Source: an uncultured Nitrososphaerales archaeon (GTDB lineage: Archaea; Thermoproteota; Nitrososphaeria; Nitrososphaerales; Nitrososphaeraceae). From it: a stretch of DNA of 64,000 nucleotides. The position numbers and the translations under genes were made by a program. The DNA is taken from assembly GCA_963709405.1 (NCBI GenBank), contig CAVPXM010000006.1, forward strand, positions 28,884-92,883, in the 5' to 3' direction. Numbering within the stretch: position 1 is the stretch's first letter; the number at the start of each line of letters is the position of its first letter. Shown here in pieces: positions 2,420 through 62,830 of the stretch. The notes beneath the pieces were generated by a model. The model was not told where the DNA came from. It did not search any database and was given only the letters and a program-made list of their open reading frames with translations.

Positions 2420-2775
2420 ATGAGTAAGTTTGGGGAATCTTAATAGCTCTGATTTATGTATCTCAGGATCTTTGTACTTGATGTGATGCTCTATTGATTG
2501 CAGATGGACATTCTTTATATCAGGATGTAATCTGCAGTAAAAGTATCCCTGCTTTTTAGCAATTATAGGATAACACTGGCTCTGGTCTAGAGTGTGTTCC
2601 GGAAGTTGCGCGTATGGTGTTGTTGGATCATCAAGAAAGAAATCAGTTATCGATCTGATTTTGGGCGTGTCTTCTATATCTATGGATGGTTTGGTTGGTA
2701 ACGGGGAACATGACCATGCGCGCCCCTCAATGTTCCCGTCCAGTTTCCCGTTATTATCGCTAGTGATTTACCTGT
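2420..2775 (-). repeat. Degenerate mobile-element segment 'Z' (copy 1), Cys/His-containing protein tail
   Basis: Minus strand reads YFYCRLHPDIKNVHLQSIEHHIKYKDPEIHKSELL; homologous to ~4330-4705, 33600-33925, 49760-49865, 52260-52410, 62180-62360. Confidence 0.8.
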
Positions 2776-2789
2776 GGATTTCCTTAGAG

Positions 2790-3009
2790 CATGATATTGC
2801 AGGAAGTTCAGGAAATGATATACTGCATGGTAACGTAGGAGATGATATAGTACAAGGAGGATCAGGAAATGACCAAATATTTGGAGATGATGGTAATGAC
2901 GTACTTACATGAAGCACAGGAGCTGATCACTTTGATTGTGGTTCTGTTACGGATAGAATCACAGTACTTTCAACGAGGTATTGGTACAAAGACAGTAGAT
3001 TGCGAGTAA
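2790..3009 (+). pseudogene. RTX/hemolysin-type Ca-binding repeat protein, C-terminal fragment
   Basis: GSSGND/GGSGND/GDDGND nonapeptides; in-frame TGA at 2910, then STGADHFDCG..DRIT, then a frameshift and ..TKTVDCE*. Confidence 0.8.
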
Positions 3010-3268
3010 TTAGATAGGTCTACTGACTAAAGAACTGTACTTATCTTCAAAGAAAAAACAGGAATGAAGGAAGGTACTAAGTTCTAATACATAGCCAAAC
3101 AGCATTAATGTCCCAGAGGTCTGGTTTACAGTATATAAACTAAATACGAACTAATTCTACAACAAATTCTGAGTTATTCATAGCTATAATACAATGATAA
3201 TAAATAGATGAATAATTTACAGTTTGCTTATCTACATATTTTGATATAATGAATTCAGGTTACCTAAT

Positions 3269-3329
3269 TGTTGTACTTGCACGGATAGGTTACATTTCTA
3301 ATTACCTACATGGGTTACACTTTTCTGTA
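3269..3329 (-). mobile_element. Internally deleted IS481-family remnant (one end only) between CCTAAT direct repeats
   Basis: 3269-3328 matches the IS end starting at 63806; CCTAAT at 3263-3268 and 3330-3335. Confidence 0.75.
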
Positions 3330-3403
3330 CCTAATAGCCTCAGACTTACACTAATTTAGCTGTTGGACAACATACAGCGCAATTTAGGGCGACCGATAGT
3401 TTA

Positions 3404-3793
3404 CAAAATACCGCGTCTGTCTCCTTTACATGGCAAGTAACAACACCATCTCCACCACCTGACAGTCAATGTACAGGTAGTGGTAACACCGTGATTACAG
3501 GTACAAATGGAGATGATACTCTGATAGGAACCGCTGGTTCTAACGTTATAAATGGTCTTGCTGGAAATGATGTTGTAAATGGTGGCGATGGAAATGATGG
3601 TATTGCAGGAAGCACAGGAAATGATATAATACGAGGAGATTCAGGAAATGACCAAATATCTGGAGGCAATGGCAATGATATCCTTACCTGAGGTCCAGGA
3701 AATGATCAGTTTACTTGCGGTGGTGGTACAGACAGAATTACTGACTTCCAGCCAGGCCTTGATACAAAGACAGCAGATTGTGAAATAAGTTGA
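3404..3793 (+). pseudogene. RTX/hemolysin-type Ca-binding repeat surface protein, 5'-truncated
   Basis: SFTWQVTTPSPPP linker, GxxGND repeats, in-frame TGA at 3689 followed by open GPGNDQFTCGGGTDRITDFQPGLDTKTADCEIS*. Confidence 0.8.
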
Positions 3794-4059
3794 TGTGATT
3801 TAGTAGTAGTAGCAATAACTATTACTGCTAATCTCATATTTTTAGCTAGCTAACAGAGTCTAATACAAACTAGTTAGAACATCGAAAATCTAGAATATTT
3901 CGTAATTTGCAAATACAATCTTTGACCTCGATTTACCACTGAATCAAAGATCATATTTCTTAGATATCGTGCTGTCAACTAATTCCTATTCGTACCGATG
4001 AGGCATCTGGCGCGCGCCCATGACTAACTAACATACAAAGTGTTATGTGATTATGTCCA

Positions 4060-4705
4060 TTTATCATAGTCTATACAGATAATGTCACCTTCCAGAAAAT
4101 ATTTATAATCTGGTGTGTCGCACATCTGTATTAGAAGACACTCTTTCCGATATAACTTAACTGGACTTTAAAAGAATCCGATATTATCTGATATATTAAA
4201 AACTAACTGGATATTAGCAAATTGAATCCGTGGGTTAACATCAACCAATGATTACTATCTATAGATATCAATTGTAGAGTCGGCAGTTCAGTTGCGTAAT
4301 TAATGTCGCTAAGTCCTGAAGTTTTACCTATTGATAGGATCAGCTGCTCATATGAGTTTGGGAATGTTCAGCTAATTTCAAGAACCTTGATTTATGTAAT
4401 AGAGGATCTTTGTATTTGATTCTCTCGATTCTGGTGTACATACTTTATCTCAGGATGTAATCCGCAGTGATAGTCTTCCTGCTTTATAGCAATTATTGGA
4501 TAACACGGGCTTTGGTCTAAATCTTGCTTTGGGAGCGGTGTGTATATGGCGTACTTGGATCATTATAAGAGAAGTCAGTTATTGACCTAATTTTGGCCGT
4601 GTCTTCTATATGTATAGCTGATTCGTTTGGTAACTGGGACATGAGCAGGCGCATCCTTCAACATCCCCGTCAGATTTCCAGTTAATATCACTAATGATCT
4701 TCTTA
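4060..4705 (-). repeat. Degenerate mobile-element segment Y+Z (copy 2)
   Basis: Near-colinear with 33340-33925 (aaatatttataatctgg...gattactatcta...gatctttgtatttgattctctcg). Confidence 0.85.
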
Positions 4706-4738
4706 TGGCTTCGGTTTATCTAAATGTGAGATGACGAG

Positions 4739-4858
4739 CCGTCATAGACGTCAGGGTATCCATAGTACTTTATTGAATCTCATATTATGAACATGTGACA
4801 CCTTACGTACTATTTTTTCTTGTACAGATTTGAATATGTACTACGGTTACTATGGATA
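4739..4858. repeat. Origin-like site: inverted 9-bp-period arrays around an AT-rich spacer
   Basis: ccgtcatag-acgtcaggg-tatccatag ... ctacggtta-ctatggata; homologous to 60848-60982. Confidence 0.55.
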
Positions 4859-5718
4859 ATCGCGTCTTAGACTTTGATTGCTTAGCCCCCGTGATTCGAT
4901 GTGTTCAGGATAAATGTCTCGACTAGTTCTTCTCCTCTTTAGACGGGATGAATTTAGAAACACTTTCGACGAATAGGGCAATAAGAAGACCATCATAAGC
5001 TGAGCCACATCCGCAAAACTCAGAGGCTCTATCAATAGCTTCCGTCTTCTTTTTGACAAATAGACAGGCCTTTAGGTTAGAGAACAATGGTGAATTATTG
5101 CAGAGGTTATCAAAGTTAGTTGGGACAACAATAAAAGCAAAGATTTGTTATATCTAGTAAGTGAAAAATAGGACTATATCAAATGGTAAAAATTACATCA
5201 TCTCATCTAACAGCAGATTCTTAAATTCATAGTAGAAGCGTGAAAAGAGTCTATAGACTTGCAGTCCTAATTGGAATCGGGCTACGTGCAGGTACAGCCA
5301 TAATTTTTATAGGCAACTATTTTATTAGTTCACAACAACTAACAGACGTTGGACAAAACAATCGATGCTCAACTGATCAGATATTAACAAATATCAAATG
5401 AATTTGTGCTGTTCTCTTTCGTTGTACATTCTCTATCTATAATTAGTAGAGAATGTTACGTATTATCAAAAATGTGAATATCCGAAATTTTGTTGCTACC
5501 TGTGTATACATATGAAATTCTGTATTTTGACACTGGGTTAGACTTAGCCGCTTATTCCTAGTAACTATAGTGTATGCTTCTAGATTAACTGGCCTTCCCT
5601 TTATTTACGGAAAGCATAGTCTAAAGGAGAGAGACCTTAAATGAGTTGAGAAAATTAGAAGAACAATAGAGTACTAGAGTGCTTAATTATTAATACTGAG
5701 CTTGATAATAACAATAAT

Positions 5719-5810
5719 AAGTTAAGTATCATATTATTCATCTACAAATCTGGTCATAATCACGAAGAGATGAGAGATGTTTTATAGACATAAATTAAGA
5801 TAGTTAACTT
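5719..5810. mobile_element. 92-bp MITE-like element (copy 1)
   Basis: Terminal IR aagttaagtatc/gatagttaactt; same-length homologue at 15745-15836. Confidence 0.7.
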
Positions 5811-6061
5811 GGCAATTGTCTGAAAGCTGTTGTAAGTAGCTCTTCAATACAAGAATTGGATTTAATTATTAATACTTATTTTGGCAGCCACAGTTTTGAT
5901 GTAATAATTAATGGTGACGATTTTGAAGGAAAGACTAGACATAACCTGATCTTGATCCATTCTGTACAATAGTGACAAAGTTAAAAAATGTATAATCCTT
6001 AATCATTTGGTTAAACGCAAGTAACACCAAATCATAATAATGGCATACTATCATAACTTGG

Positions 6062-7353
6062 TTACATAATTATTAGTGAAGCAAGGAGACCAGGATGTAT
6101 TAATTTCAAGTGAAATTCTTCTCCTTTGATGTACCGAAATTCGTCATAATTCAATAAAAGGCGAGCATACCCTGAAGTAAATTCTTTTCCGGTAACCTCT
6201 AACACCGAATCATTAAGTCTACTTAATATGGATCCGTATAAAGACACGTATTTTTGGATGTAACTCGATATTATAAAAAGCAATTATATTCCTTTCTAAT
6301 CAAGGATCTAAACATATAATACCATGGACTTTCTATTTCATTTGATACTTTTTTATCACATTTTAATACTATATTGTAGTTGCTCAAGTCCAAGAATATG
6401 TTGCCAAAAGAACAGTAAAGGAATTTTTGAAGACTGGCTTCTCTCATCGCAGACCAAAAGTAGACGTACGTTATTCCCTTACCTAATACAACATGTACCT
6501 AATTTGCTTTGACCTGACTCGAGATAAAGAATCATGATTATCTCAGCGAAAGTTTCCTTTACATCGAATTTTATAGTCTGCCCGTTGAACTAGGTCCAGT
6601 AACAGATACATTATTACTCTTATTAAGAACGTCACTCACTATTATATCGTCACATATACCAGGAATAGCCTTTCTTACTGAAACCTTTCTTATGCGATTA
6701 TCAAATAGTCTATCTAGCAACGGCATGACATGTGGAATCATACCTATAGCTACACCGGTTTTCCAAAAGTAAGTTCTATCTCTGGAGTCTAAATCAGATT
6801 CACAAAGAACAAAATCGAGAGAATGACTTTCTAGTAATAATTTTAGATTGTATTCGAGTTGCATATCTTTCAGAAATTGTCTAACCTTTGGCTTCCACAG
6901 ATAGTGATCGATTCCGAGTATTTTAATAGATCTTGAGGATTCAACAATTTTTCGAAGACGTTCCTGATCTAATGCCCAAGGCTTTTCGATTATAAAAATA
7001 TCAGCATATCCAGAGTATTTCTTGATAGTAGATTCGAAGATCTCAGGAGGAAGAGACAAATAGAAAATTCTTTGAAAACCTTTTTCATAATCTGTCCGTA
7101 ATATTTCTCTTAACAGCAAATTATCAGCAACCACTTCACTGCCTCCATTCTCTTGCACGAATCTTTCCTTACACCAGTTGGTCTGCTCTTCCGTTAATAG
7201 CCTGCTTTCTCCAATAATGGACTCAAAACTCTTCTTATCAATTATCGTCACTTTGAGTTCTGGAAGATCATTACAAATAGCCATTACCACCGGAATCAGA
7301 TGGATTCTGTTCTGACCAAAGCCAACTAATACTAAATGAGTCTTTGTTTCCAA
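6062..7353 (-). pseudogene. Divergent glucose-6-phosphate dehydrogenase (Zwf)-like gene, broken 3' half
   Basis: IFYLSLPP, IIEKPW and IDHYLWK match G6PD motifs YLAVPP/EKPFG/IDHYLGK; downstream frames give ETFAE, LGKG and YARLL. Confidence 0.65.
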
Positions 7354-7386
7354 TCAGGATTTATTATTAATACATAATTATATAAC

Positions 7387-19683: not shown

Positions 19684-19738
19684 AAAATGAAAATCTCTTA
19701 TATTCTATTGACAAGTATAGAAGTCCCGTATTATTAGT

Positions 19739-23374: not shown

Positions 23375-25615
23375 ATCTTATTTACCAGTATACACATAAG
23401 GAGATTTTAATGCTCTGATTCCTTGGTAGTAAGTCACAACATTGTAAGTTCGATCACATATGTAAGAACCTGAAAACAAGCAGATCATTGGTTTTGATTC
23501 TTCTCTATCGCGCGCATTATTGCAGTCAAAGTCACGGGTTGATCGGACAATTGAGCTATAGTAATTATTAGTTTATACGATTGTTATCATAAATAAATCA
23601 TAAATAATGATTTAGTTTTTCTAATCCTTTAATTTTTGTATGTCGACGACCTGTCTTATTAGCAACGGCGTTTAAAAATATTAAATATGGCTCAATATTT
23701 TAGAAATATCTCTGCTTAATTGTAAGAATACTTTTATAATAGTTAGTAAGTTGGCAACTGATCATTTATACAGAGCAGAATAACATTGTAGAATGTAGAA
23801 AAAGTCTTCCTATAAAAATTCAGGATAACGAATTGGTCCTTGATATTTGGTTTGTTTAGTCTTTTATATAATTGAAATTGCGTGGAGTTTTATACCATGT
23901 TTATCATATGTTGTTAATCATGGAAATGTCAACGAACAAGACAATACTCTATAATCGAGATACAGATATAGAGGATTCATTCCCGGAAGGAAAACAGGTG
24001 ATAAACGATTATGAGGATGGAAATGTGATCGTTGATTTTTTCTCCAGACATAACACTTTAGAAGAATACATAAAACTTTTGAACGAAACATCCAAGAAAT
24101 AGATGATTAATATCCTTATTACAAAATTATGTCAAAGATTGCGAGTAGAGGGAATAACCTAATAGGCTTTAACATGAATCGGCCTAAGGCAATGTAAGGT
24201 TTTCTAAGGTATACTGACTACATACTACCACCATAACGTATCTGGTCATTAGTCGTTGGTCGTTGGGAGATGGGCTGTCCACCAATAATCCAAAATTCTG
24301 TCTTTAACTAGGCTCTAGACATCTTCATAAGACTGATCTTATATTTTTTTCTTGAAGAGACAGGTCTTAAAGTTGACGTCTACATTGATCCTCTTTTGGC
24401 ACCGTCAAAGTTTAGACTAATCGACAATTTCACATTGATGGAAGGGCAACTTATTATCTAAAAAAGAGGAAAAAAGAGTGTCAATACAATCCTATTCCAT
24501 TTCCTCATTATTCCGCGTTTTATCTATTGCAATTTCCTCTACATTAATTGAAATTTTAACCCATTTACCATTTACCATTATTTTTAAACGTATATGTAGA
24601 TACTCCTTTGCTAACTCCGTGAAGATATCTAGCATCAATCTTGTCAGTCACTCTGTCTCTCAATTTATTAACTTGATATTCCGCAATCATCAAATTTCCA
24701 ACGATATTCTCTAGTTCTATGTCTCTTTCTTCAAGTCCGTCTTGTTTTTTCAATTTTTTTGTTAGGCCGGTATTTCCTAGTCCGCGTTTTCTATGTATTG
24801 TCTACTTCCTATTTGAAAATGAATTTCGTGTATGTAATTCGATGTATCGATTACTGGAGTAGACAGGTTTCCACCACATATCGGGATTCCTGTTTCTTCT
24901 ATTTCTTTGTTCTCGAGTAGGATACAATCGCTACTACTACCTTTCATTCATCTATCTTTTAGACAACATATTATACAACACATACCATTAGTCAGGCTTT
25001 ACAAAATCACAACCGCTAGTAGATCTAACTACAATTGTCTAATAAGCATCAACGATTGTAAATGTATGGCATATATCCTCACACAGAAATTGGGAAATTA
25101 GGATAATACAGATGTAAACCTCGGGATAACCTTTAACAAGTCCTAGGAAGCTTAAGTATAAATGAAAAGACAAAGAAAAGCGATGGCCATAATCAGCAAC
25201 GTTACTGAAAATGGATATCTGCTGGAAAAGGTCATATGGATTTCGCGACAGGTATCATCTATATGTCTTGTCTTGGGACTAGTGAAAATAAGACTCATCG
25301 ATATTGCAAAAGGAGCAGGTGTAACTGGAGATAACCGTAAAAAATAGATTTAAGAATCTTAAAGAAAAACTTCCTGAGGTAGATAATTGAATCAGTTTTT
25401 AGTTAGATCTTTGATTAATTTTTTGCTCATACTAAGGACACATTCTCCAAGAAGTTCGGTTGGATGTCATAACATAGCATGTTTTTTTAGATGATTTAAA
25501 TGGTCATGTACAGTGTGACATAAAATCTGAATCTGCTCTTAAGAAATTCCCAAACGGCAATTCTTTATTTGCTGATCATTCAAATTTTCCCAATGTCGAT
25601 TATGGATCAAGATCT

Positions 25616-30450: not shown

Positions 30451-30705
30451 GGTTACATCAGTTACATTTAGTCGTTTTTGGGTGTAACCTGCCGTATAAA
30501 ATTCTTGTAATTACTATACTAAGTAAGCGGTTAGCCTATATTTCCTGCATAGTTATGCATTAATAATTATTATAATTATAGGTTACATCAGTTACATCAG
30601 TTACATAGCTTTTCATATACAAAAACAATTTAGATATCTAAGATGAAGAGGCGCGCGCCTTGTAGAGATCGAAAATATGGCGTAACCGATGTAACCGTTG
30701 TAACT
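30451..30705. repeat. Origin-like 9-bp-period arrays (gttacatca)n with an inverted partner array
   Basis: 30451-30467 and 30581-30606 direct; 30681-30705 gtaaccgat/gtaaccgtt/gtaact inverted. Confidence 0.65.
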
Positions 30706-32336: not shown

Positions 32337-32538
32337 TAATTATTGTGCCAACTATCCGTTTTAGACCTAGGCCGATGCGCGCCCATGGCTTACGTATATC
32401 TGATCAATGTCTACGCGTCAAGTTAATCAGTTCATACAGGTAACCCCACTTTACAAAATTAAACAGTATCGCTCTATTTTAGATTGGTAATTCCCACAAA
32501 AAGCGTAAAACATGACTCCGATAAATTACTATCATTTA

Positions 32539-32836: not shown

Positions 32837-33312
32837 TTGGAAAGCAATAGTGAATTAAAAATTCTTGGTTTCGCAGGAAGTCTAAGAGTTGGTTCTTATA
32901 ATAAGGCTCTTCTACGTGCTACTATAGACCTGTTACCGGAAGATGTTACTCTGGAAATATTTGAAATTGATGGCATTCCTCTATTCAATCAAGATATTGA
33001 GAAAGATATGCCAACGAAGGTAAGAGAGTTCAAATCGAAAATAAGAGAAGCAGATGCCATCCTGATTGCAACTCCAGAATACAATTATTCAGTACCTGGG
33101 GTATTAAAAAACGCAATTGATTGGGCCTCTAGACCTTACGGAGATAATGCATTTGAAGGGAAGCCGGCTCGCTATAATGAGTGCGTCAGTAGGCATGTTG
33201 GGTGGTGCTAGAGCACAGTATCATTTACGCCAGATATTCGTATTTTTAAATGTGTATCCGGTAAATGGACCAGAGGTTATACTTCCATTTGCACAGGATA
33301 AATTTGATGCAA
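32837..33312 (+). pseudogene. NADPH-dependent FMN reductase, frameshifted and 3'-truncated
   Basis: GSLRVGSYN, TPEYNYSVPGVLKNAIDW, GGARAQYHLRQ; frameshift ~33165; replaced by repeat Y after ~33312. Confidence 0.85.
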
Positions 33313-33339
33313 CTTCAGTACCTACGTATACTAAGGTGT

Positions 33340-33925
33340 CAGTCTATACATCCGGCATATCATTTTCGAAAATATTTATAATCTGGCATGCCGCATATCG
33401 TTATTAGAAGACGCCATTTCCGATATGATTTATACTGGACTTTACAAGAATCCGATGTTATCTGATATGTTAAAAACTAACTGCATATTAGCAAATTGAA
33501 TCCGTGAGTTAACATCAATCAATGATTACTATCTATTGATATCAATTGTAGAGTCGGTAGTTCAGTTAAGTAATTAATGTCACTAAGTCCTGAAGTTTTA
33601 CCTATTGATAGGATCAGTCTGCTCATATCAGTTTGGGAATGTTCGGCTAATTTCACGAACCTTGATTTATGTACCAGAGGATCTTTGTATTTGATTCTCT
33701 CGATTCTGGTGTACATACTTTATCTCAGGATGTAATCTGCAGTGAAAGTATTCTTGCTTTATAGCAATTATTGGATGTCACGGGCTTTGGTCTAAATCTT
33801 GCTTTGGGAGCGGTGTATATGGCGTACTTGGATCGTCATAAGAGAATCGAGTTATCGACCAGATTTTGGCCGTGTCTTCTATATGTATAGCGTAAGGGAC
33901 ATTTAACTGGAAACATGAGTAGCCG
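33340..33925 (-). repeat. Degenerate mobile-element segment Y+Z (copy 3)
   Basis: Homologous to 4060-4705; ends at GCGCGC 33925. Confidence 0.85.
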
Positions 33926-34117
33926 CGCGCCCCCACTAGATCGAACGGGGTTGGAACACCAATGGAGAGATGCGATAACATTCATTGCAAGAAACGAGAC
34001 GCGGTCATTAGTAGTAGTCGGAAGTAATCAAATACAAGAGCAGCATCAGATCCATAACGCGATAGAAGATAAATCTGTATCATCATCGGAAAAAAGGCTT
34101 TCCTTGTAGAGGAGCTG

Positions 34118-35387
34118 ATGAAAACATATACCTTCAAAACTTTAAAGGATGTAGAAATAATTCTATACTATAGAGAAGGCAAGTACTGCTCTGGCGGAGA
34201 ACAGCTCATTAAGGCTGAACTTGAGAGATTAGGTGGATTTTCGATAACCACACATTTGCGTACTGAGGTTATCAATCACATAAAGGCAAGAACGCTGGTC
34301 GATAGGGGCGAATTTGATACAAATCTGGATATTATGAATGTTAAGAATGGGTTGATAAACATTCGCACAGGTGAATTCAAAGAACACGATCCGAACTACT
34401 TGTCATTAATACAATTACCTGTACGATATAATCCTAGGGGCGCGCCCATCAAAAATAATTGCTTTTATGTACAATGTCTTGTATCCGTCCGACGTACCTT
34501 TACTGCTAGAGTACATAAGATATTGTCTCATCAGGCATAATAGATTACAAAAAGATCTGATGTGCGTTGGAGATGAAGATAACGGTAAGAGCGTTATGCT
34601 AAAAATTATTAGCAAATTCTTGGGTCGAGAGAATATTAGTAGCAAGACACTACATAGTTTGGCAGTGGTGAATGACAGATTCGCGACGGCCGACCTGTAC
34701 GGTAAATTGGCCAACATATTTGCTGACCTATCGGCAAAGAGACTTCCAGATATAGAAGCATTCAAAGTATTAGCCAGCGGAGATAGAATTAGCGCAGAAC
34801 GAAAATTTCAGAACAGCTTTGAATTTGAGCCAACTACTAAGCTGATTTTCAGTGCAAATACTCCTCCCAAACCAACTGACGATATGGAAAACGCGTACTA
34901 TAAGCGATGGATATTGATCTCATTTAATTTAAGGAAGAATTGCTTTTTCTGTAGGAAACCGATAGTTAAGGATCCAGATATTACAGAGAAGTTAACTACT
35001 GAGGAAGAATTGTCTGGCCTACTAAACTTAGCATTAATTTCTGCAAGGAGGCTCTTGACAAAACGTAAATTTGTAAAATCTTCTACTACAGAAGCGGTTA
35101 GAGAAATATATCAGAGATTGTCAGACCCAGTTAAGGCCTGGCTTGATGATAGGTGTGCACTTGGCCCACAATACGAGACAGATAAGCAGGAAGCACATAC
35201 AGATTTTATTAAATACTGTTGGGATAAGAGGCTGAATAGACTGGAAATAAATGCACTAGGTAGAGAGTTATCAAAACATAACATACACGACAAACGCAGT
35301 GGTTCAGGAGATGAAAGAGTACACATGTGGACAGGCTTAGCACTTAGGTCTAACCTGAGAGAAGATGGTCAGGAAGCCCTCCTATAG
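34118..35387 (+). pseudogene. D5/P4-family primase-associated SF3 helicase, one frameshift
   Basis: D5_N motifs (NVKNGLI..TGEFKEHDP..PVRYNP), Walker A GDEDNGKS, LYGKLAN, AERKF, KLIFSAN, C-terminal wHTH; frameshift at GGGCGCGCCC 34438-34447. Confidence 0.9.
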
Positions 35388-35532: not shown

Positions 35533-35804
35533 TCTGGTAAAACGAGCGCGGAGTGCAGATGCAAACTTTACTTATAACTCACCATTTAGTATTGGAGTAA
35601 ACGATGCAAAATGCAATGATACAGGTTGTCAGGTATACATACTACAGCCGGACCAAGGGTTTGCATTTCACTCTTCCGAATAAGGTCCTTTAACGACTCG
35701 TTATGTCATTATCTTTCATAATCAAGAAAAACGATTTGAATCTATCGGCTGCGGACCCGCACCTTTAATCATTTATGAGTTCGATAGGACAGTATTTGGC
35801 ACGC

Positions 35805-36309
35805 CTCGTGATATACAGCATACATAAATTTTATCATCATTTCGGGGCGTCAGTCTACACCTAGGACGCAGCATTTTTGATAATATTTATACCCTGGCAT
35901 GCCGCATATCTTATCATAACGCTATTTCCTAGATAATTATGCCGAATGTGTTAAAAAATCCGATATCATCCGATATGTGCATATTAGCGAAATTAAATAT
36001 GTTGATTCGCATCGACTAATTGCTACTATCTATAGATATCAATTTGCAAGGTCAACACTAAATTCCTAGCCTAGAATTTAACTCCATTAATCAAGTCCCT
36101 TGATGTTTCTTTCTTGTCAACCTACCGGTAAATGATAAAACTTTGCGCTCACTGTCAGGACAATTTTAATATTTCTATCTTGATATCTAACCAGAAATAA
36201 GAACTATCTGACCTATCTGACCTATCTGACACTTCCATACCAGCTACTCTCAAACCATACATAGATGTATTCTGTTCCAACTATCTGACCTATCTGACCT
36301 ATCTGACCC
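35805..36309 (-). repeat. Mobile-element segment Y plus (atctgacct)n arrays (copy 4)
   Basis: Colinear with 53405-53919; arrays at 36204-36230 and 36281-36309. Confidence 0.85.
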
Positions 36310-51407: not shown

Positions 51408-51944
51408 ACAATAGTAACGTCCGCAGATATTATAATGCTGAGATTCTATTTTCTCGCCAAATTAGTTAAATTGTGCTTTCCTTTTTTAGCTATGCTCTGC
51501 ATTATATGTGATTATCTTTTGTTATGGTTTATTTCTTGTGTTTATTTAGTGTAATATTCATTTAAGTGGATTGAGCTTTTATGCAGTTTGTATTATCGAC
51601 TAAAGAATAGTAAAATATTATCATTGACTATTCAGATTAAACGGATTATTTGCTTTATCCTTTGTAGTAGATTAATTCATCTACAATCACAAATAACAAT
51701 TTAATACTTGACTTAGATATTAGGTCCAGACTCCAAAACTTTCGTCAAATTAGAAATAAACATTAAGTAAAAAATGGAGACACCGTCATAGCAGTTGAAG
51801 CTAAAGGTAGTATATTATAGCACTATCGATCTTTCTATACACACGGACACCTGTTGACAACGATGACACAGAAGAGGCTACAATCGGGCGCGCCCGTCTC
51901 GGGAGGGACCAAGTATAGCTATCGAAAATGAAAAACCGTGCGCC

Positions 51945-52410
51945 TCTCGATAGACATGCGCATAAATTTTATCATCATTGTCTAAGAATACCGAGTCGTC
52001 ATCCTATACATCAGATGCCTCATTTTCGAAAATATTTATAATCTGGTATGCCGCATATCGTTATTAGAAGACACCATTTCCGAGATAACTAAACCGGACT
52101 TAAAAGAATCAGATACTGTCTGATATGTTAAATACTTGCTAGATGAACTAAATACTTTGGTTTACATCCACTAATATGCTACTATCTATAGATACCATCA
52201 GTTGGCGGAGTCGACAGATAAGTTCATCACGAGTCCTCCTAGTTTTACCTATCAATAGAATCAGCTAGTTATGAGATAGTCTAGTGAATTTTAATAACTC
52301 TGATTTATGTGCCTCAGGATCTTTGTACTTGATATGATGTTCTATGGATTCCAAATGTGCATTCTTTATTCCAGGACGTAATTTACAATAATATCCTCCT
52401 TACTTTAGAG
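51945..52410 (-). repeat. Degenerate mobile-element segment Y+Z (copy 6)
   Basis: cataaattttatcatcat...aaaatatttataatctgg...gatttatgtgcctcaggatctttgtacttga. Confidence 0.85.
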
Positions 52411-53035: not shown

Positions 53036-53404
53036 TTCAGATACTTTTAGGCTGTTCTTTTCAATTCTATTTATAGTCTGGTAATTTCAAGGTACGTCTC
53101 CTTCTGCAGCCAAAAATACAATGTCAGGAGGTCTTAGACCTATGAATCGCCATTATGCACTCCTGGTTCGGGCCAATTATCGATAAGCAATTGGTCCATA
53201 GGTGGACCATCTCCCTGTCGTTTAACAAAGGGTGTCGCAGGTTCATATTTTTTTAACTGGCCCCTATCTATTACCTCGGCCACCTTCGTAACGGGGCCTG
53301 CGCCCGCCTGTGCATATATAGCTATGCGAACCGTGCCATTACTGAGGTTCTCTTTGGTTATCCTATGGTTATATGTATGGCCTTACAGATTAAGTATTTA
53401 CTGC

Positions 53405-53919
53405 GCGCTAATGATAGACAGCATACATAAATTTTATCACCATCCGGGGACGTCTGCCTACACATAGGACGCAGCATTTTTGATAATACTTATAACCTGA
53501 CATCTCTCATATCGTATTATAACGCTATTTCCGGGATAATTATTCGGACTAGGTTAAAAAATCTGAAGTGTTAAACTTATTGCATGTTAACGGAATTAAA
53601 TACGTTGATTCGCATCGACCAATTGCTACTATCTATAAATATCAATTTGCAACGTCAACACTGAATTCCTAGTCTAGAATTTAACTCCATTAATCAAGTC
53701 CCTTGATGTTTCTATCTTGTCAAGCTACAGGTAAATGATAAAACTTTGCACTCTGTCAAATACAGTTTTGATATTTCTATATTGATATCTAACCAGGAAA
53801 TAAGAACCATCTGACCTATCTGACCTATCTGACCTATCTGACACTTCCTTAACATGTAATCTCGAATCGCATTGAACTGTTACTGCATTCCAGCTATCTG
53901 ACCTATCTGACCTATCTGA
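53405..53919 (-). repeat. Mobile-element segment Y plus (atctgacct)n arrays (copy 7)
   Basis: Colinear with 35805-36309; arrays at 53809-53842 and 53894-53919; begins at GCGCGC 53403. Confidence 0.85.
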
Positions 53920-54123: not shown

Positions 54124-54987
54124 TTGTCAAACTTTATTGTGTTCGAGGGATGGGATATAAATCGGACTGAGTTTGTGAAAAGGGAGGATTTGGATACCCA
54201 AAGAAAATATGAAGAGAGAATTGACAGTGATCTACATAAACTCCTTTCTACTCTCAATCTTAAGGTAACTAAGGTTCCTATAGTAAATTCCAGTAGATCT
54301 GCTTATCAAGTAAATGGCGTTGACTTGGAAGTCGCCCCGATTCATACATTTGTTCCTAGAACGACAAAAATTGAGAGAATGTTGGCAGAGATGAGCAAGG
54401 TTTTTGGTAAATGTCATCACTTGTACATGTTCTTAGATCCAGACTTACAACCCGATATTAGAATTCTAGGCACGGAAGATTGCGATAGAAACGGGTCGAT
54501 TCTATGTATAAGACAAGACATTACTCTTTACTATCTTAAAATATTAAATGAGATAAACAAAAAATATAACCAAAACCTAAATCATGATCAGATAATAGTA
54601 TTAGATTTTAGATATGCACAATTTGATTCTGTGACTTTAAAGAAGGGAATCCTTTCTTTGTTAGACAAAAGAGGCCATGACTATGCCAATTTACTCGGGA
54701 TTATTGCAGGTATTCCTAAAAATATCAATTCAGAAAGGTTAGATCAAACTACATATTTCTTTGTAGAAAATAGATATTACAAAGGACCATACGACGAAGT
54801 TAAAAAGAAATTATTGGATATCACTAAAGTTCAAACATCAGTATCCGTTATGCCTATGGCGATTCTTATTACAAAAAAATCATCAGAGCTATTCTCTATT
54901 CAAAAGCCTTGTATCAATACTCCGTCGTTAAGTACAATCAGAAAAATCGTGACACCTGAACTAATTTATGAGCAATTTAATTATTGA
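54124..54987 (+). CDS. Hypothetical protein (weak PD-(D/E)xK-like pattern)
   Basis: Intact 287-aa ORF; E..I...L and VDLEV only loosely nuclease-like. Confidence 0.5.
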   Translation: MSNFIVFEGWDINRTEFVKREDLDTQRKYEERIDSDLHKLLSTLNLKVTKVPIVNSSRSAYQVNGVDLEVAPIHTFVPRTTKIERMLAEMSKVFGKCHHLYMFLDPDLQPDIRILGTEDCDRNGSILCIRQDITLYYLKILNEINKKYNQNLNHDQIIVLDFRYAQFDSVTLKKGILSLLDKRGHDYANLLGIIAGIPKNINSERLDQTTYFFVENRYYKGPYDEVKKKLLDITKVQTSVSVMPMAILITKKSSELFSIQKPCINTPSLSTIRKIVTPELIYEQFNY

Positions 54988-58732: not shown

Positions 58733-58971
58733 AGATAGACTAAATAGCCATTGATTGACACACTCAAGATTTCCTATAATCCCCTACTAATCGTGTCTGC
58801 AATAGTTTTTAAATTGACCCGGTCGTCGTAGTTGAACTTATGATCTGGGTGCGCGCTAGCCTCGGGCGCGACTACTTATAGTATCAAGACAATTGGACCA
58901 GTACTTAATTATGCACAAGTCTATGACTCGATAGTCGAGGCTTTAGACGTTCCTAGCGTGCATTATGCTAG

Positions 58972-59122
58972 GCATGAATTCTTATCATCATATCAAGGAA
59001 TCAGCTATAAATCGGATGTCTCAATTTAGAAAATGTTTTTAATGTAATATGCCGCACATCGTATTAGAGAACACTCTTTCCCAGATAACTAAACCGGATA
59101 TTGGCAGAATCCGATACTATTC
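58972..59122 (-). repeat. Degenerate mobile-element segment Y (copy 8)
   Basis: ttatcatcat...atgccgcacatcgtattagagaacactctttcccagataactaaaccgga. Confidence 0.7.
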
Positions 59123-59550
59123 ACTAGTAATAATAAAAATAGTTATTACGACTGTTGCTCCATAGTTCATAGTGAGCTAAATTGTTGCGTTTTGACGGCG
59201 ATAAAATTCAACTGCATATATGTGCTTGCACTTGAGATCACGACTAATATGGTCTGGACATGAACAAACCCATACAGACTGGGTTTCAATGACGTTGTAG
59301 GTATGATAGCCAGATTTTGACCTGACACTATATTTTGATTCGTTTATCATCGTAATAGCGCCACATGTTCGAGCTATCAGTTTGCCTTGCTCTTCACGAT
59401 TAACGAGTCGTTTAGGTATATTTAGCTAGGCGCGCGCATCTTGATCGTAGTAGGTAGTTTTCATTTATCGCCTCACCGAATCTCTTATTAGGATATTCCT
59501 GAAGTTCCCTTCTGATTCTAGTCCCTTCATTCAGGTCTTTTGTATGCGCA

Positions 59551-60210
59551 TCAAGGCATTTTCTCCGTCTTCCCATGTGACTTCAAATCTCTCACCAGTA
59601 TATTCTTTGTAAGAGTCTTTTCCAAAATGCCACATGGTGACGGTCCAGGAATCATGATCTGGAATGGATGAATAAACCATTTGAGAACGAAGGGATCATC
59701 GTTATCAAAGAATTTGAAATCAAGCCGTTGCTCGTACGGAGCAATATATATATTTGGAACACCATTCGTAAAAAAGTACCTTGCAGAATCGTACCTCCTC
59801 GGCAGCGTCTTTCGAAGCAACGCCTGCAGCATTCTTATTTGACGCGTCCTGCCAATTAGTCCATCCTGGAACCTTCTCAATCTCTACTTGGGGTGGAGTA
59901 GAAGCTTGACCATTTTTCTTATCTATCCAAAAAGATTTGAGCGATTCTATTGCCTCTTCCCCAATTTCCAGATTGCAAAAATTGACTTACTAATATTGCA
60001 CCATTCATCGCTCCTATTGAAGTACCAGCTATGATATCAAACAGTAGTCCATTTTCTCCACTTTTCTTGCTAACTTCCGTAACTTCTTCTTCAAGCTTCT
60101 TACGTAATACCTGGAGCACACCAACCTCGTAAGCGCCGAGAGACACTCCTTCTCCGAGAACAAGAGCTCTTTTGCTTCTTAGGTGTAGTCATATTATTCG
60201 TTTTAGACAT
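59551..60210 (-). pseudogene. Patatin-like phospholipase, frameshifted and truncated
   Basis: RALVLGEGVSLGAYEVGV, DIIAGTSIGAMNG (GxSxG). Confidence 0.85.
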
Positions 60211-60847
60211 TGCAATATTCTCATTCATTGCTTATCTTTAATATTTAATAATAAGAGAACGGTATCAATAACAACAGACAGATATTTATTAGTAAAGAAA
60301 TATAGATCACCTCTATACTACACATCTGGGCACCATTGGCGTACCGACGTTAAAGTTACGATATTGCTCGACTATACTAGAAGCCGACATAGTCCAGAAA
60401 AACTACTTCTATAAGTATATTCATATGGGTATGGATAGAATATGGTTTATGACATTCTTGGTATCCATTGTGGTTTACAGAGCATAGCGAGCATACTGAA
60501 ATATTTTTATAAAACGCAATAATTACAATCAGACGTACGAAGTGACTGCTAAGTTAAGATTATTATTTTGTTTATTAACACAAAATAAACAGTAAATGTG
60601 TTTAGAACACATTATAACATTGTGTGTATTTACTACTCCTAGGAATCCCCAGTGATTCTTTATTGACATTGTAGGGCGATTCAGGTGGATAATTGGCCTG
60701 GTCGCTCTATCTTATTAGGTTATGATACTATTATACTGTATTAGAAATAGGATAAGTATCTTAACCGTACCGCTAATTGTCATTTTTTGCCCATTTATGC
60801 TTTGAAGGTTTGGAGACATCGTAGATAGTTCATACTTAGCAAACAAG

Positions 60848-60982
60848 CCGTCATAGACGTCAGAGTATCCATCGTCCTATATTGGATTCTACATCCATAT
60901 GAGTATGTGGTACGACATAGTAATACAATTTTCATTATACAGAATTGAATATGTACTATGGATACTATGGATACTATGACGG
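60848..60982. repeat. Origin-like site: inverted 9-bp-period arrays
   Basis: ccgtcatag-acgtcagag-tatccatcg ... ctatggata-ctatggata-ctatgacgg. Confidence 0.7.
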
Positions 60983-61718
60983 ATTGGATATCACTAGAGA
61001 TTCGAGCACGAAATTCTATGAATATTATATGTAAAATTAATCCGTCAGGGTTGGTTTTCTATACATCAACAACGGTATTCTATAATGAAAAGCAAAAATG
61101 AGTGTTGTCTACCTATAATAATAAGAGTAATGCTGAATAAGAAATTAGTCAAGTCTGAAACCATAAATAAATCGCATCATGTTATTATGTCTACATTATT
61201 AATCGTCTTGGACTATCATCCTGTAGGTGTGATGATACTATCGATAGTTACACCTTGCCATAGAAATCCTACAATAGGTATACCATCAATATTCTGTAGA
61301 GAATCTATTTTTCCCAGTTTATCAGAATAAATCCTTTCCTAGAGATGTTAGTAACAATCACCCAAGCAGTAATCTTCAGTTTAGCATTAGGTGAAAGGAG
61401 CTCTATCAACACGTCCATTGCTACCAGAACTGAGGTTCAAAGTTTTCCTGGTAAATTGGGAGTAAAAAGAGGTCTTTAGAATAGCAAAAGAGTTGTACCA
61501 TGGCATTATTAAGGCACAATCCACAATGTCTGGAATGAAACCGAATGCGTTGATCAGCAGCAACTCAGTCAGCACCACCTCTAGATGGCGATGTAGTTGA
61601 CGTCTAAATGCTCACTTCAATTCTTAATAGATAATAGAAATAATTGATTAAATATGTTTAATTCGCATAAATATAATACCACATAACACTTTTATAGTAT
61701 AATATCATAAAATTTGGT

Positions 61719-61946
61719 ATGCGTAAACGAAATTTTTTCATGGCTTGTTGTTTGGCTATATTATTTGGAATAGGTGTAGTTACTATACCTTCTATAGTCT
61801 TAGCCGACAATCCGCATGAACCTGGCGATCAAGGAAATCCACATTGTCCAAGCCATCCTACAGGAGATCCACACGAATGTTCTAATGTATGTCGACCTGG
61901 TGCTGCTATTCCAGTGTGCAAGGGAGGAGGCGGTAAGCCAGGATAG
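61719..61946 (+). CDS. Small secreted His/Cys/Pro-rich peptide
   Basis: Signal peptide ending VLA, then NPH/NPH/DPH repeats and four Cys; TATA-like tttata upstream. Confidence 0.65.
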   Translation: MRKRNFFMACCLAILFGIGVVTIPSIVLADNPHEPGDQGNPHCPSHPTGDPHECSNVCRPGAAIPVCKGGGGKPG

Positions 61947-62179
61947 TTCTTATCTTAGCTTTACACTTCATGATGTTTTTTACGTTGTAAACATTCATCT
62001 CTATTTTTTGGCGGCCTCTGATTATTATCACTCATTTTGAATCACTTCCTGAAATACTGGACAGAGATTCTGACTGTAACCGATCGGTTGTCTAGCCTCT
62101 TTTTCTGTACTATTAATCTCATCTAGAATTCGCCAATTACATAGTGTATTCATATTACAGACACTAATTCAACTGAATG

Positions 62180-62360
62180 CTTTACTATCTATAGAATCAG
62201 CTAGTCATGAGTAGGTTTGGGGAATCTTAATAGCTCTGATTTATGTATCTCGGGATCTTCGTACTTGATATGGTGCGCTATTGATTCCAAATGCACATTC
62301 TTTATTTCAGGATGTAATCTACAGTAAAAGTATCCTTGCTTCTTAGTTATTATTGGAGTC
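62180..62360 (-). repeat. Degenerate mobile-element segment Z (copy 9)
   Basis: GYFYCRLHPEIKNVHLESIAHHIKYEDPEIHKSELLRFPK. Confidence 0.8.
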
Positions 62361-62830
62361 CATTATCTACCGATGATTTAGTCAACACATTGTACAAGTA
62401 TGGGTTTTCTGTCTCTAACTTCTCTAGACTTATCGGTAAATGACCATTACGTTCTGCAGAATTGATGTTATATTTGATCGTGTAATTAGGACTAAACTGT
62501 AATCGCTTTAACTGGCTGCATTTGTGTAACCAATTTTTGATTGTGCCGTAAGCCTCGTAATCAGAACATTTTATGATATTAGTAAGGTAAGGGGCCAGTA
62601 TACGCCACACTGTAAATTTTCTATGATCCTCTACTTGTGTCTGTAATAGTTTCTCAGTCCATCGGAAAGTAGTTGTATTGATGGTCTGAGCGCGCGCCCT
62701 CCTACTATCCGTTAATCTCTGCTTCATCTATTCATTAATTAGCCATCTTCTAAAATCGCGTAACAGATAATTTATTGCAGGCCTTTGACCGTCCCACCTC
62801 TAAAAGATTTTGAAGCTTTTCGATCAGATG
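62350..62830 (-). pseudogene. PriX-like primase C-terminal domain of a mobile-element primase
   Basis: WTEKLLQTQVEDHRKFTVWRILAPYLTNI..IKNWLHKC..GHLPISLEKL; upstream LLRDFRRWLINE separated by a stop. Confidence 0.75.

Follow-up and report, generated by a model that had tools for sequence, protein, structure and literature searches.

GCGCGC is over-represented in the DNA of this soil archaeon, and the excess comes mostly from the palindromic box of a promoter-like repeat, here called F, plus other mobile-element debris. The explanation that we favour, with a little better than even confidence, is that GCGCGC owes its frequency to being part of repeated DNA, associated with mobile elements, which has been multiplied and has decayed within the genus, the box being a candidate protein-binding site. 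F is the main carrier, with further copies of the motif at fixed places in the PriX-like, integrase and Z families, and copies lose the motif through CpG transitions. The F box probably serves a protein, perhaps a dimeric one, as a binding site where the shuffled module begins upstream. The preferred candidate would be a regulator of the promoter in the module, and less weight is given to a crossover site for a module-moving recombinase. There is no support for a genome-wide signature, for repair drive of the HIP1 kind, for scars of restriction or for chimeras of the assembly.

GCGCGC sites in the window

The window, the whole stretch of 64,000 nucleotides analysed, contains 12 GCGCGC loci (16 overlapping matches) at 2718, 4010, 23510, 30651, 32377, 33925, 34440, 51888, 53403, 58851, 59430 and 62690. 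Dinucleotide-preserving shuffles of the window gave a mean of 1.27 matches (sd 1.15, maximum 4) and none of 100 shuffles reached 16. A sequence-only reading of the window had listed these 12 loci against an expectation of about one or two; its positions were reproduced, with a shuffle expectation of 1.3, as were its extended forms such as GGCGCGCGCCC at 4009, GGGGCGCGCCC at 34437 and CGGGCGCGCCCG at 51885. Its statement that no site lies in an intact gene agrees with the ORF and Pfam maps, which fall short of proof.

Six F copies, all on the plus strand, explain between four and seven of the 12 sites. Copy 1 (4002..4322) has the box GGCGCGCGCCC at 4009..4019, 92 nt upstream of the TATA-like TTTATAATCTGG at 4102, and a leader with three TCCGATAT. 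Copy 2 (33275..33595) has a TATA-like box at about 33375 and lacks the palindromic box, while copy 3 (35786..36106) has a decayed box, TGGCACGCC, at 35797-35805. Copy 4 (51935..52255), with the decayed box CGTGCGCCT at 51937-51945, lies upstream of an intact 4HBT thioesterase gene (52541-53035), and the CGGGCGCGCCCG at 51885..51896 is 147 nt upstream of its TATA-like box. Copy 5 (53389..53709) is the 'repeat Y' that had been said to start at the GCGCGC at 53403; repeat Y starts 8-10 nt before 53403, and from this box to the TATA-like box the distance is 86 nt. ORFs 54124-54987 and 55198-56478 lie downstream. The GCGCGC at 58851..58856 precedes the TATA-like box of copy 6 (58936..59256) by 185 nt, and the paralogue C6:26823-27122 has GCACGCAC at the matching place. 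The two decayed boxes and GGCGCATCC at 4648-4656, a decayed Z-position motif homologous to 2718 and 33925, are the three near-matches to which the earlier reading had drawn attention; they are real, and homologous to true GCGCGC sites.

Other sites occupy fixed places in the PriX-like, integrase and Z families or lie within a broken primase-helicase gene. The CGCGCGC at 23509..23515 was matched to no repeat family. GGCGCGCGCC at 30650..30659 was also placed in no family; the spanning homologue C37 reads G-GCTCGCC and soil run X6 has a variant. GCGCGCCC, followed by ATGG, at 32377..32384 has an F-box-like context, with a CCCGGGTATCCCGGG doublet at 32320-32334, and the 150 nt around it gave no F core. 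At GGCGCGCGC (59429..59437) the homology of paralogues C36 and C59 ends; a third paralogue, C44, continues through without the motif.

The F module

F is a genus-specific repeat of about 330 nt and the largest single source of GCGCGC. An nhmmer search gave 82 matches, of which 77 could be anchored. From 5' to 3' it comprises an 8-bp palindromic box, a variable spacer, a conserved GTCAGTCTATAC, the TATA-like TTTATAATCTGG and a conserved leader in which TCCGATAT occurs three times, the consensus context of the box being ATTT-GGCGCGCC-TCATGA. GCGCGC lies 72-100 nt upstream of the TATA-like box in 25 of the 77 copies, mostly as GGCGCGCC. Over the wider range of -150 to -50 it is found exactly in 29/77, with 23 of these 29 between -100 and -85; the distance is nearly fixed, at about 85, 92 or 100 nt. 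Grouping the loci by their distance from the TATA-like box, in steps of 100 nt, put 25 between -100 and -1 and 0-6 into every other bin. Since F copies were found with the core alone, the search did not favour copies that have the box. A perfect GGCGCGCC is kept in only 14/77 copies, 42/77 are within two mismatches of it and 35/77 have no recognisable box.

The copies of F are concentrated in a few islands, where they make up co-oriented arrays (13 copies on contig C26, nine on C6, six on C79 and five on C44) upstream of differing accessory genes; 27 of 34 neighbouring pairs are on the same strand and seven on opposite strands. The downstream ORFs include short-chain dehydrogenases, RelA/SpoT-like proteins, a thioesterase, an FMN reductase and a patatin-like protein. 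An ORF of at least 80 aa lies behind only 28/77 copies, which indicates that much of the F family is itself debris. The box is within about 15-30 nt of the module's upstream edge, where similarity between copies starts. No discrete repeat ends were found, the ends being heterogeneous, and only 2/77 copies have a second box, inverted, between +480 and +640. F occurs in all six other genomes of the genus and in none of 19 genomes of other genera; the box-to-TATA arrangement was seen at 3/10 congener F loci and on 4/11 metagenome contigs. Counts of GGCGCGCC against its reversed control in all genomes of the genus were 40:7, 13:2, 14:1, 10:2, 61:7, 21:1 and 32:1.

Inheritance and homology breakpoints

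Within repeat families GCGCGC lies at fixed homologous positions, where sister copies have such forms as GCGCAT, GCGCGT, GTGCGC and GCACGC, a decay by CpG transitions. It follows that the motif is passed on as part of the repeat and does not arise at joints. The Z-family position is represented by GCGCGCCCC at 2718..2726, within a 106-aa RTX-repeat frame fragment. The PriX-domain remnant (62353..62727, minus strand) carries GCGCGCGCCC at 62690-62699, as had been read from the sequence, and five of seven spanning paralogues have the motif at the homologous place.

A D5-like primase-helicase pseudogene (33925..35387, plus strand; D5_N plus DUF5906) is 5'-truncated and frameshifted; the intact congener has 757 aa. 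Inside it, GGGGCGCGCCC at 34437..34447 has an Arg-Ala-Arg-Pro coding context with one extra G, and this G, which touches the 34440 site, causes the frameshift that had been located there. The site itself is ordinary Ala-Arg-Pro coding sequence, reading GCGCGT and GCGCAC in two relatives. GCCGCGCGCCCCC at 33922..33934 is a true junction: repeat Z was said to end at 33925, and Z homology stops and homology to the congener's intact primase-helicase starts exactly there. Both parents have near-identical GC-rich strings at this point, GCGCGCCCC in Z copies and GCGTGCCTCC in the helicase orthologue, and the joint keeps a single copy.

Across the genome an abrupt end of homology was found within 6 nt of 20/116 GCGCGC sites in repeated DNA (17.2%), against 599/8222 random positions (7.3%) and 181/2191 GC-only hexamers (8.3%). 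Homology breakpoints thus fall on GCGCGC about twice as often as the baseline (∼2.3x). The other 96/116 sites are away from homology ends, so most sites are not at junctions, and the proposed association of sites with junctions stands for two confirmed junctions but not for the majority of sites. The breaks exactly on the motif are 33925, the PriX copies C26:43971 and C44:6236, and also C36:63423. Only five of 27 F-box loci are at an abrupt homology end, and many HSP ends at the box represent gradual divergence of the upstream flank, not a break. HSP ends are in excess at control GC-rich hexamers as well (0.285 at the site and 0.11-0.24 at shifted positions), a weaker effect. Homology breaks and illegitimate joins would coincide with the box at about twice chance because of its place at the edge of the module and because no other GC-rich word is as common in AT-rich junk.

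Genome-wide enrichment

Markov correction did not remove the enrichment, which is 2.1-2.3x genome-wide with models of orders 1-3; by z-score GCGCGC ranks first of 4096 hexamers at orders 3 and 4. According to the tables of PMC4060949 prokaryotes generally have fewer alternating G-C hexamers than expected, and for this reason the excess calls for a cause. The genome is 91% complete in 100 contigs, and the near-identical contig ends C86/C87 inflate a few of the counts.

When the DNA was divided into classes the excess was confined to non-ORF DNA (DNA without a reading frame of at least 100 aa) and repeated DNA. In non-ORF DNA GCGCGC is the most over-represented hexamer, at 3.5-4.4x expectation. 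Non-ORF low-copy repeats contain 74 against 10.5-13.3 expected (5.6-7x), and non-ORF 'unique' DNA, scored with dc-megablast and perhaps including older repeat debris missed by that program, contains 54 against 18-25 expected (rank 1/4096). Unique long frames contain 124 against 80-90 expected (1.4-1.55x, rank 29) and high-copy IS DNA contains none. Non-ORF DNA repeated at least three times has 10.75 GCGCGC loci and 8.45 CCCGGG loci per 100 kb, the six other GC palindromes having 0.4-2.7. After homologous sites were collapsed, GCGCGC retained 82 independent non-ORF positions, which is little more than for GCCGGC (73) but roughly double the 33-52 of the six remaining GC palindromes.

Of the non-ORF sites, no more than a quarter to a third can be put down to F: its boxes are 25/112 loci, and 38/112 fall between -400 and +900 relative to an F anchor. 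Outside these neighbourhoods there are 83 overlapping matches, compared with about 30-37 expected for all non-ORF DNA, so a residual 2-3x excess is assigned to no family.

Alternative explanations

The box could be the crossover or core site of a site-specific recombination system assembling and shuffling F-led cassettes, on an integron-like platform or as the end of a cargo-carrying element; in that case recombination at the core would have produced the GCGCGC seen at joints. The co-oriented arrays (27 same-strand pairs to seven), the different gene behind each module, the box 15-30 nt from the start of similarity, the four exact breaks, the breakpoint excess (17.2% vs 7.3-8.3%) and the recurrence of the motif in unrelated mobile-element genes (PriX-like, integrase, helicase) are consistent with this. 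However, no tyrosine-recombinase match was found on the window's contig and none consistently beside F arrays, abrupt ends are few at F boxes, much of the HSP-end signal is gradual divergence, repeat ends are heterogeneous and other GC-rich hexamers share the effect more weakly. The relaxed recombinase core site suggested earlier thus keeps its module-edge box, a few exact breaks and the ∼2.3x excess but is tied to no recombinase, and we regard it as a minority possibility. It is unlikely that the motif is instead a functionless passenger of amplified repeats and a hot spot of illegitimate joining, whether through microhomology or provoked by Z-DNA, as the most stable short homology in AT-rich junk. 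The shared strings GCGCGCCCC and GCGTGCCTCC reduced to one copy at 33925, the HSP-end excess of control hexamers and decay in sister copies would fit, but microhomology joining removes copies and cannot generate an excess. Moreover, a per-base identity of ∼75-80% predicts exact GCGCGC in ∼18-26% of F copies, so that 29/77 is retention at or above expectation, the box-to-TATA distance is fixed despite the variable spacer, and the box recurs in congeners and metagenome contigs.

An analogue of HIP1, in which methyltransferase-linked mismatch repair of the very-short-patch type converts near-matches to GCGCGC most clearly under weak selection, would agree with the first rank even in 'unique' non-ORF DNA, with an excess common to the whole genus and with the rarity of such hexamers in the PMC4060949 tables. 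Against it, single-transition neighbours in non-ORF DNA are at 0.78-1.17 of expectation, barely under transversion neighbours (0.76-1.49), no C5 methyltransferase domain (PF00145) was found in the 91%-complete genome, unique long frames show little excess, sister copies lose the motif instead of gaining it, and the 'unique' DNA may be repeat debris. This earlier proposal is very improbable. The search for methyltransferases did return 11 N4/N6-methylase-domain matches, with specificity not assigned. These, a few joints exactly on the motif and its match to known restriction sites (BssHII/AscI-like) are what could be said for the other proposal, that incoming DNA is shredded by an endonuclease and its fragments religated and integrated. 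Such scars are highly improbable given that 96/116 sites lie away from homology ends, that sites are inherited, and decay, at homologous positions, that 34440 is ordinary coding sequence, that the host's unique genes do not avoid GCGCGC and that the intact helicase orthologue has only a near-match at the 33925 joint. The fragmented assembly and the C86/C87 ends might suggest chimeras, formed in the assembly or in the library, with a GC-rich palindrome at the joint. Assembled contigs from independent soil runs of four different studies served as read support, and sites lacking it had been named as a danger; contigs with 0-4 differences bridge 30651 (X1, X3), 32377 (X1, X6, X7) and 34440 (X1, X3), while 33925 is bridged by X1 only, which may be the source sample. 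With F in six other genomes, and its box-to-TATA arrangement in congeners and unrelated metagenome contigs, chimeras are extremely improbable.

Comparison with known systems

Inherited, repeat-borne GCGCGC has partial counterparts elsewhere. The cyanobacterial highly iterated palindrome HIP1, GCGATCGC, is likewise a short GC-rich palindrome, lineage-wide and the top Markov over-represented word. HIP1 is spread through genes and spacers alike, whereas here the excess is in non-ORF repeats at about one locus per 10 kb, with only 1.4-1.55x in unique long frames, no depletion of neighbours and no C5 methylase found. REP/BIME-type elements, MITEs and 'mobile promoters' resemble F in being intergenic, in tens of copies in one genus, in combining a short GC-rich palindrome with a promoter-like element and in decaying with age; F differs in its lack of discrete ends, in an inverted second box in only 2/77 copies and in forming co-oriented arrays before varied genes where those elements are scattered single insertions.

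Integron gene-cassette arrays have been reported from archaeal metagenome genomes, and attC-bounded arrays share with F the co-oriented tandem modules, differing accessory genes and short conserved boundary site. The attC-type bipartite inverted repeat is an integron feature, no integron integrase adjoins the F arrays, and the conserved part of F lies upstream of the gene with its own promoter-like element. In Sulfolobus conjugative plasmids conserved recombination motifs border variable regions, and these too are short palindromes recurring in related archaeal mobile elements and marking the borders of rearranged segments. They differ in sequence, host lineage and element type, and the border association here is statistical (∼2.3x), not regular. 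Finally, the F box, as a candidate regulator site, resembles the upstream operator and activating sites that dimeric regulators bind at archaeal promoters: it is a perfect palindrome of 8 bp, and its distance upstream of a TATA-like box is almost constant in many transcription units. It differs in that GCGCGC is also found within coding remnants.

Abundance of GCGCGC in the window and in the genome

The sequence-only reading had listed GCGCGC at 12 loci of the window, and all of these places were found to be exact, with 16 overlapping matches among them. Dinucleotide-preserving shuffles of the window gave 1.27 ± 1.15 occurrences with a maximum of 4, and none of 100 reached the observed 16. The window is 36% G+C. 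Nine of the 12 loci lie inside GC-only runs of 8–13 nt. Of the 68 GC-only runs of at least 6 nt in the window, the six longest are among these GCGCGC-bearing runs, outside of which every other GC-only hexamer occurs at most 5 times.

The GCGCGC sites are real sequence and not assembly chimeras because they recur in contigs of soil metagenomes from four independent studies. The bridging data are DNA contigs of four runs, X1, X3, X6 and X7, parts of 34020–35430 being without cover in X6 and X7. Contigs of X1 and X3 span both 30651 and 34440, those of X1, X6 and X7 span 32377, and X6 has a variant form of 30651. The joint at 33925 is bridged in X1 alone, which may be the source sample. Other contigs from the soil runs skip part of 32264–35794, joining 32264 to 35504 (X3 and X6, with 26 other letters between), 32654 to 35793 (X1 and X7) or 32343 to 35794 (X7). 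The skipped 3.1–3.5 kb holds an FMN-reductase remnant, the second window copy of the repeat module F described below, the repeat Z and a helicase pseudogene. The sides of these joins are short, 24–48 nt, and the joins could reflect structural variation or paralogous copies.

The window is C6:28884–92883 of an assembly that comprises 4.83 Mb in 100 contigs at 37.3% G+C and is 91% complete. The window genes include cupredoxins, universal stress proteins and a histidine kinase. Judged by these genes and by its relatives, the organism belongs to a genus of large-genome soil archaea, and gene content suggests Nitrososphaeraceae as the family. The genome is unusual in being very repeat-rich and gene-poor for an archaeon. 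Stop-to-stop frames of at least 150 aa hold 50.4% of positions, 1.80 Mb is without a frame of at least 100 aa, and non-self dc-megablast alignments cover 40.7% of bases at least once and 15.1% at least three times.

Markov-corrected counting across the assembly found 292 GCGCGC loci, with observed/expected ratios of 2.07, 2.34, 2.22 and 1.36 at orders 1–4; at orders 3 and 4 no other of the 4096 hexamers has a higher z. Long frames (at least 150 aa) contain 161 occurrences, 1.55, 1.68 and 1.55 times expectation at orders 1–3, while the 1.80 Mb of DNA without a frame of at least 100 aa contains 130, at 3.47, 4.36 and 4.08 times expectation, ranking first by both z and ratio. When the classes were split further, the word ranked first in non-ORF low-copy repeats (74 observed, 10.5–13.3 expected) and in non-ORF ‘unique’ DNA (54 against 18–25), ranked 29 in unique long frames (124 against 80–90) and was absent from high-copy insertion sequences, where 0.1–0.3 occurrences are expected. 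An IS481-type element (rve + HTH) at 19500–21000 and 63800–64000 of the window, with ∼40–50 copies genome-wide, has zero GCGCGC. Among words of equal composition, the 36 classes of GC-only hexamer, GCGCGC is the most frequent in non-ORF DNA (130, runner-up 81). It reaches 10.75 loci per 100 kb in non-ORF DNA repeated at least three times, compared with 0.4–2.7 for six other GC palindromes and 8.45 for CCCGGG, which belongs to another repeat. Collapsing homologous sites left 82 independent non-ORF positions against 73 for GCCGGC and 33–52 for the other six. The class split, the comparison at equal composition and the collapsed counts therefore indicate that the excess is real and belongs to repeated non-coding DNA, and that it is modest after removal of copy number. 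Slippage of (GC)n was rejected as a source, other dinucleotide repeats being absent from the top words. The direction of the excess is unusual because alternating G-C hexamers are described as generally under-represented among prokaryotes in a published survey (PMC4060949).

Contig C55 (456 kb), at 41.4% G+C richer than the rest of the assembly, carries 70 of the 292 loci, many of them clustered inside long repetitive frames such as 542–1079 and 444937–451581. It could be a separate replicon, a genomic island or contaminant sequence.

An upstream box with GCGCGC in a repeat module

The sites at 4010 and 53403 and the decayed places at 35797 and 51937 are mutually homologous and constitute the upstream box of F, a genus-specific repeat module of ∼330 nt. 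The box is the 8-bp palindrome GGCGCGCC, which contains GCGCGC. The repeat called Y in the sequence-only reading, said to start at 53403, is a copy of F and does begin there, 8–10 nt before the motif. A profile of the core alone (window 4060–4290), with the box left out, gave 82 matches, of which 77 could be anchored on the TATA-like element TTTATAATCTGG; positions are counted from this element. An exact GCGCGC is present at −150 to −50 in 29 of the 77 copies, 23 of the 29 at −100 to −85. At most two mismatches to GGCGCGCC are seen in 42 copies, and at most one, at −130 to −65, in 28 copies, 14 of them exact. When the stretch between −1200 and +1200 was divided into 100-nt bins, GCGCGC loci numbered 25 in the bin from −100 to −1 and 0–6 in all others, with a small rise downstream in the bins from +300 to +600 (5, 3, 4 and 2). 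The box positions cluster at about −85, −92 and −100 within the consensus ATTT-GGCGCGCC-TCATGA. The box stands at the upstream edge of F, similarity between copies being down to background by ∼30 nt upstream of it. Decayed boxes read GGCACGCC, GGCGTGCC, GACGCGCC and similar, mostly by CpG transitions. The motif is thus inherited with the multiplied repeats, at a fixed position in them, and decays by transitions.

Downstream of the box, copies of F continue with a variable spacer, GTCAGTCTATAC, the TATA-like element, GCCGCACATC, three TCCGATAT repeats and the palindrome TATCTATAGATA. In the leader (window 4130–4300 and other copies) the three TCCGATAT repeats are direct and the palindrome is perfect over 12 nt; paired segments around ATCCG/CGGAT vary between copies and might preserve a predicted hairpin. 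Searches of the window gave no Rfam match at gathering scores and no tRNA. The ends of contigs C86 (44463–48371) and C87 (21813–25058) are 97–99% identical to window 3834–7385 and duplicate the site at 4010, which reads GGCGCGCACCC in C86; these ends represent recent duplications or else strain variants merged in a single bin.

The window has six copies of F, with TATA-like boxes at ∼4102, 33375, 35886, 52035, 53489 and 59036, all on the + strand. Besides the boxes at 4010 and 53403, the sites at 51888 and 58851 precede TATA-like boxes of F by 147 and 185 nt, and those at 33925 and 59430 follow such boxes at 550 and 394 nt. The site at 2718 is homologous to 33925, and 32377 has a box-like context in which the F core is not detectable. 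The sites at 34440 and 62690 are in gene remnants, and 23510 and 30651 are unassigned.

Arrays, cargo and distribution of the module

F occurs on 36 contigs and is concentrated on C26 (13 copies), C6, which holds the window (9), C79 (6) and C44 (5), islands in which GCGCGC abounds as well. Among neighbouring pairs less than 15 kb apart, 27 of 34 are on the same strand and 7 on opposite strands. The ORFs behind F vary from copy to copy and include three short-chain dehydrogenases (adh_short), two RelA/SpoT-domain proteins, an FMN reductase (FMN_red), the 4HBT thioesterase of the window (52541–53035), fragments of IS transposases and proteins without a family. Independent metagenome contigs have a patatin-like gene (contig L046) and one ORF without a family, co-oriented and 3′ of F. 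An ORF of at least 80 aa follows 28 of the 77 copies and one of at least 150 aa follows 16; much of the family is debris. The RelA/SpoT-domain ORFs C38:40484–41056 (190 aa) and C44:9157–9708 (183 aa) lie directly behind F copies, and window ORFs near 29842–30207 and 36680–37120 have weak EAD11 or Asd-4-like matches. The islands may hold conflict- or defence-type genes.

All six other genomes of the genus contain F, with 2–30 matches each among the matches listed, and none of 19 genomes of other genera does. Of 10 F loci from congeners 3 show the box-to-TATA arrangement, as do 4 of 11 metagenome contigs, one of the eleven being too short upstream to judge. Counts of GGCGCGCC against a reversed control in the genomes of the genus are 40:7, 13:2, 14:1, 10:2, 61:7, 21:1 and 32:1. 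F is not the sole carrier of GGCGCGCC in the family, since another genus has an 18:3 excess without a match to F. The exact F core pattern had no match in a viral contig collection.

Association with the ends of homology

The sequence-only reading placed several sites at breakpoints, and the individual cases stand. Repeat Z ends at 33925, and from the same base onwards the window is homologous to the D5-type primase-helicase of a congener, where the gene is intact (757 aa), so the helicase gene of the window lacks its first ∼800 nt. At this joint the intact orthologue reads GCGTGCC. The helicase frameshift at 34440 is also confirmed: the congener has AAGCGCGTCC (Lys-Ala-Arg-Pro) and the window GGGGCGCGCCC, one extra G shifting the frame, and a third genome has GCGCAC at this place, which is ordinary coding sequence varying at CpG positions. 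The PriX remnant carries GCGCGC at 62690 as claimed; of the 7 paralogues that span the homologous place 5 have it there too, and in two more PriX copies (C26:43971 and C44:6236) homology stops exactly at the motif. Between species genes alone align and intergenic junk does not.

Taken over all sites the claim holds in part. Abrupt ends of good alignments lie within 6 nt of 20 of 116 GCGCGC sites (17.2%), compared with 599 of 8222 random positions (7.3%) and 181 of 2191 GC-only hexamers (8.3%), and the other 96 sites are elsewhere. The ‘abrupt’ filter kept 12774 of 13493 ends and therefore the test essentially concerns HSP ends of good alignments, some of which are merely the fade-out of a poorly conserved upstream flank. 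Per site, the mean share of alignments ending within 8 nt of GCGCGC was 0.407 (69 sites) against 0.148–0.254 at eight shifted positions; control GC-rich hexamers showed a weaker effect, 0.285 against 0.107–0.236. These per-site and abrupt-end tests replaced aggregate BLAST HSP-end counts, in which control GC hexamers and GCGCGC were similar in raw share (5.7% and 6.1%) and which are misleading because large families dominate them. The association is real and about twofold, breaks coinciding with the motif some two times as often as chance, with the repeat families in the count not independent of each other.

Other carriers of the motif

F boxes account for 25 of 112 non-ORF GCGCGC loci; counting everything from −400 to +900 around an F anchor raises the number to 38. 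The motif at the Z position is exact in 6 of 16 copies compared, the window's two included. The PriX-like family is a further carrier, and in two groups of four tyrosine-recombinase genes or fragments GCGCGC loci coincide with integrase-domain matches. Outside F neighbourhoods there are 74 non-ORF loci (83 overlapping matches) against ∼30–37 expected for all non-ORF DNA, a 2–3-fold residue that may be older repeat debris.

Tyrosine-recombinase fragments at C38:4869–5114, C68:12236–12475, C82:97–258, C21:277792–278001, C89:61–288 and C45:16605–16808 end near position 82–87 of the 172 in the Pfam model, as though the genes had been cut at a common point; in four of them GCGCGC falls near model position 34–38. 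Non-ORF CCCGGG forms one homologous family of 31 sites, a second palindrome-bearing repeat sometimes found 35–45 nt from a GCGCGC box. A doublet CCCGGG(TAT/ATA)CCCGGG occurs in 7 places (window 32320–32334, C26:29434, C43:13441, C46:35656, C52:1894, C73:6147 and C100:1742). Direct repeats of 131 nt at 49819–49949 and 51113–51243 of the window are 100% identical and flank a frameshifted IS630-type element (DDE_3 + HTH) at ∼49967–51049; a normal target duplication is far shorter.

Possible role of the box

The fixed distance of the box to the TATA-like element across many units leads us to favour a putative operator or upstream activating site, a choice made tentatively and with somewhat less than even confidence. 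The palindrome would be the binding site of a dimeric protein. The main rival, close to the relaxed recombinase core site proposed in the sequence-only reading, is that the box is a recombination core which stacks and swaps F modules. The co-oriented arrays and the breakpoint association speak for this reading and the small share of F-box loci at abrupt homology ends (5 of 27) speaks against it; we consider it possible at a low level of confidence. In its fullest form GGCGCGCC would be the crossover core of a novel cassette-shuffling system in soil Nitrososphaeraceae, in which promoter-bearing F and its downstream genes are captured, stacked one-way and exchanged at the box, the cargo being accessory or conflict-type genes (RelA/SpoT-like, patatin-like and dehydrogenases). 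The core within plasmid or virus genes (PriX-like, integrase and primase-helicase) would then let the system break up and recruit incoming elements. This extended version is improbable. Pure hitch-hiking of the motif on multiplying repeats with microhomology joining has likewise a slender chance of being correct.

The remaining proposals are unlikely. Against repair drive by an analogue of HIP1, the excess is not genome-wide, as the rank in unique long frames indicates, the one-transition neighbours of GCGCGC are not depleted (0.78–1.17 of expectation), and a search of the 91%-complete assembly for C5-methyltransferases (PF00145) gave no match. The assembly has 11 matches to the methylase domain PF01555, whose specificity is not deducible from sequence alone. 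Scars of an endonuclease with end-joining would agree with the sites found at joints, but most sites are not at homology ends and sites are inherited at homologous repeat positions. Artefacts are also disfavoured. A reversed motif in Z resembling the F box (GGCGCGCC then TCATG) prompted consideration of an inverted-box MITE or invertible promoter; this was dropped as the main reading given that a second box, at +480 to +640, is present in 6 of 77 copies and both boxes in 2 of 77, and that homology runs past the Z motif.

A striking word-frequency anomaly is traceable to one repeat family and exposes an unusual genome. No published description of a module like F was found in the literature searched, which included part of PMC6563490, and nothing relevant was found on a GCGCGC motif in archaea. 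F combines 77 copies, confinement to one genus, a palindromic box and co-oriented arrays ahead of varied accessory genes. As an operator the box would define a large co-regulated set of accessory genes; as a recombination site it would represent a new route of gene capture in relatives of ammonia oxidisers with expanded genomes. Either reading offers a testable handle in the form of a single 8-bp site, a single promoter-like element and a large set of natural variants.

Comparison with known systems

HIP1 is over-represented in coding regions as well, whereas the excess of GCGCGC is in non-ORF repeats and comes with neither a PF00145 match in the assembly nor depletion of one-transition neighbours. 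Restriction and religation would put sites at joints with the full site in both parents, whereas the orthologue at 33925 has GCGTGCC. MITEs have paired terminal inverted repeats on a unit of defined length; F does not, and the ends of its copies are heterogeneous, with no discrete termini. The F arrays share with integrons the co-oriented tandem cassettes with varied genes but differ from them with regard to the integrase gene and attI at the array head and the attC of each cassette: PF00589 has no match on C6 and a broken copy only on C26, and no attC-like structure was identified. With promoter operators and upstream activating sites the F box shares a fixed spacing between palindrome and putative core promoter across many copies. 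Overall, the closest counterpart of F is a dispersed repeat family that carries a palindromic box, and its arrays resemble a cassette platform.
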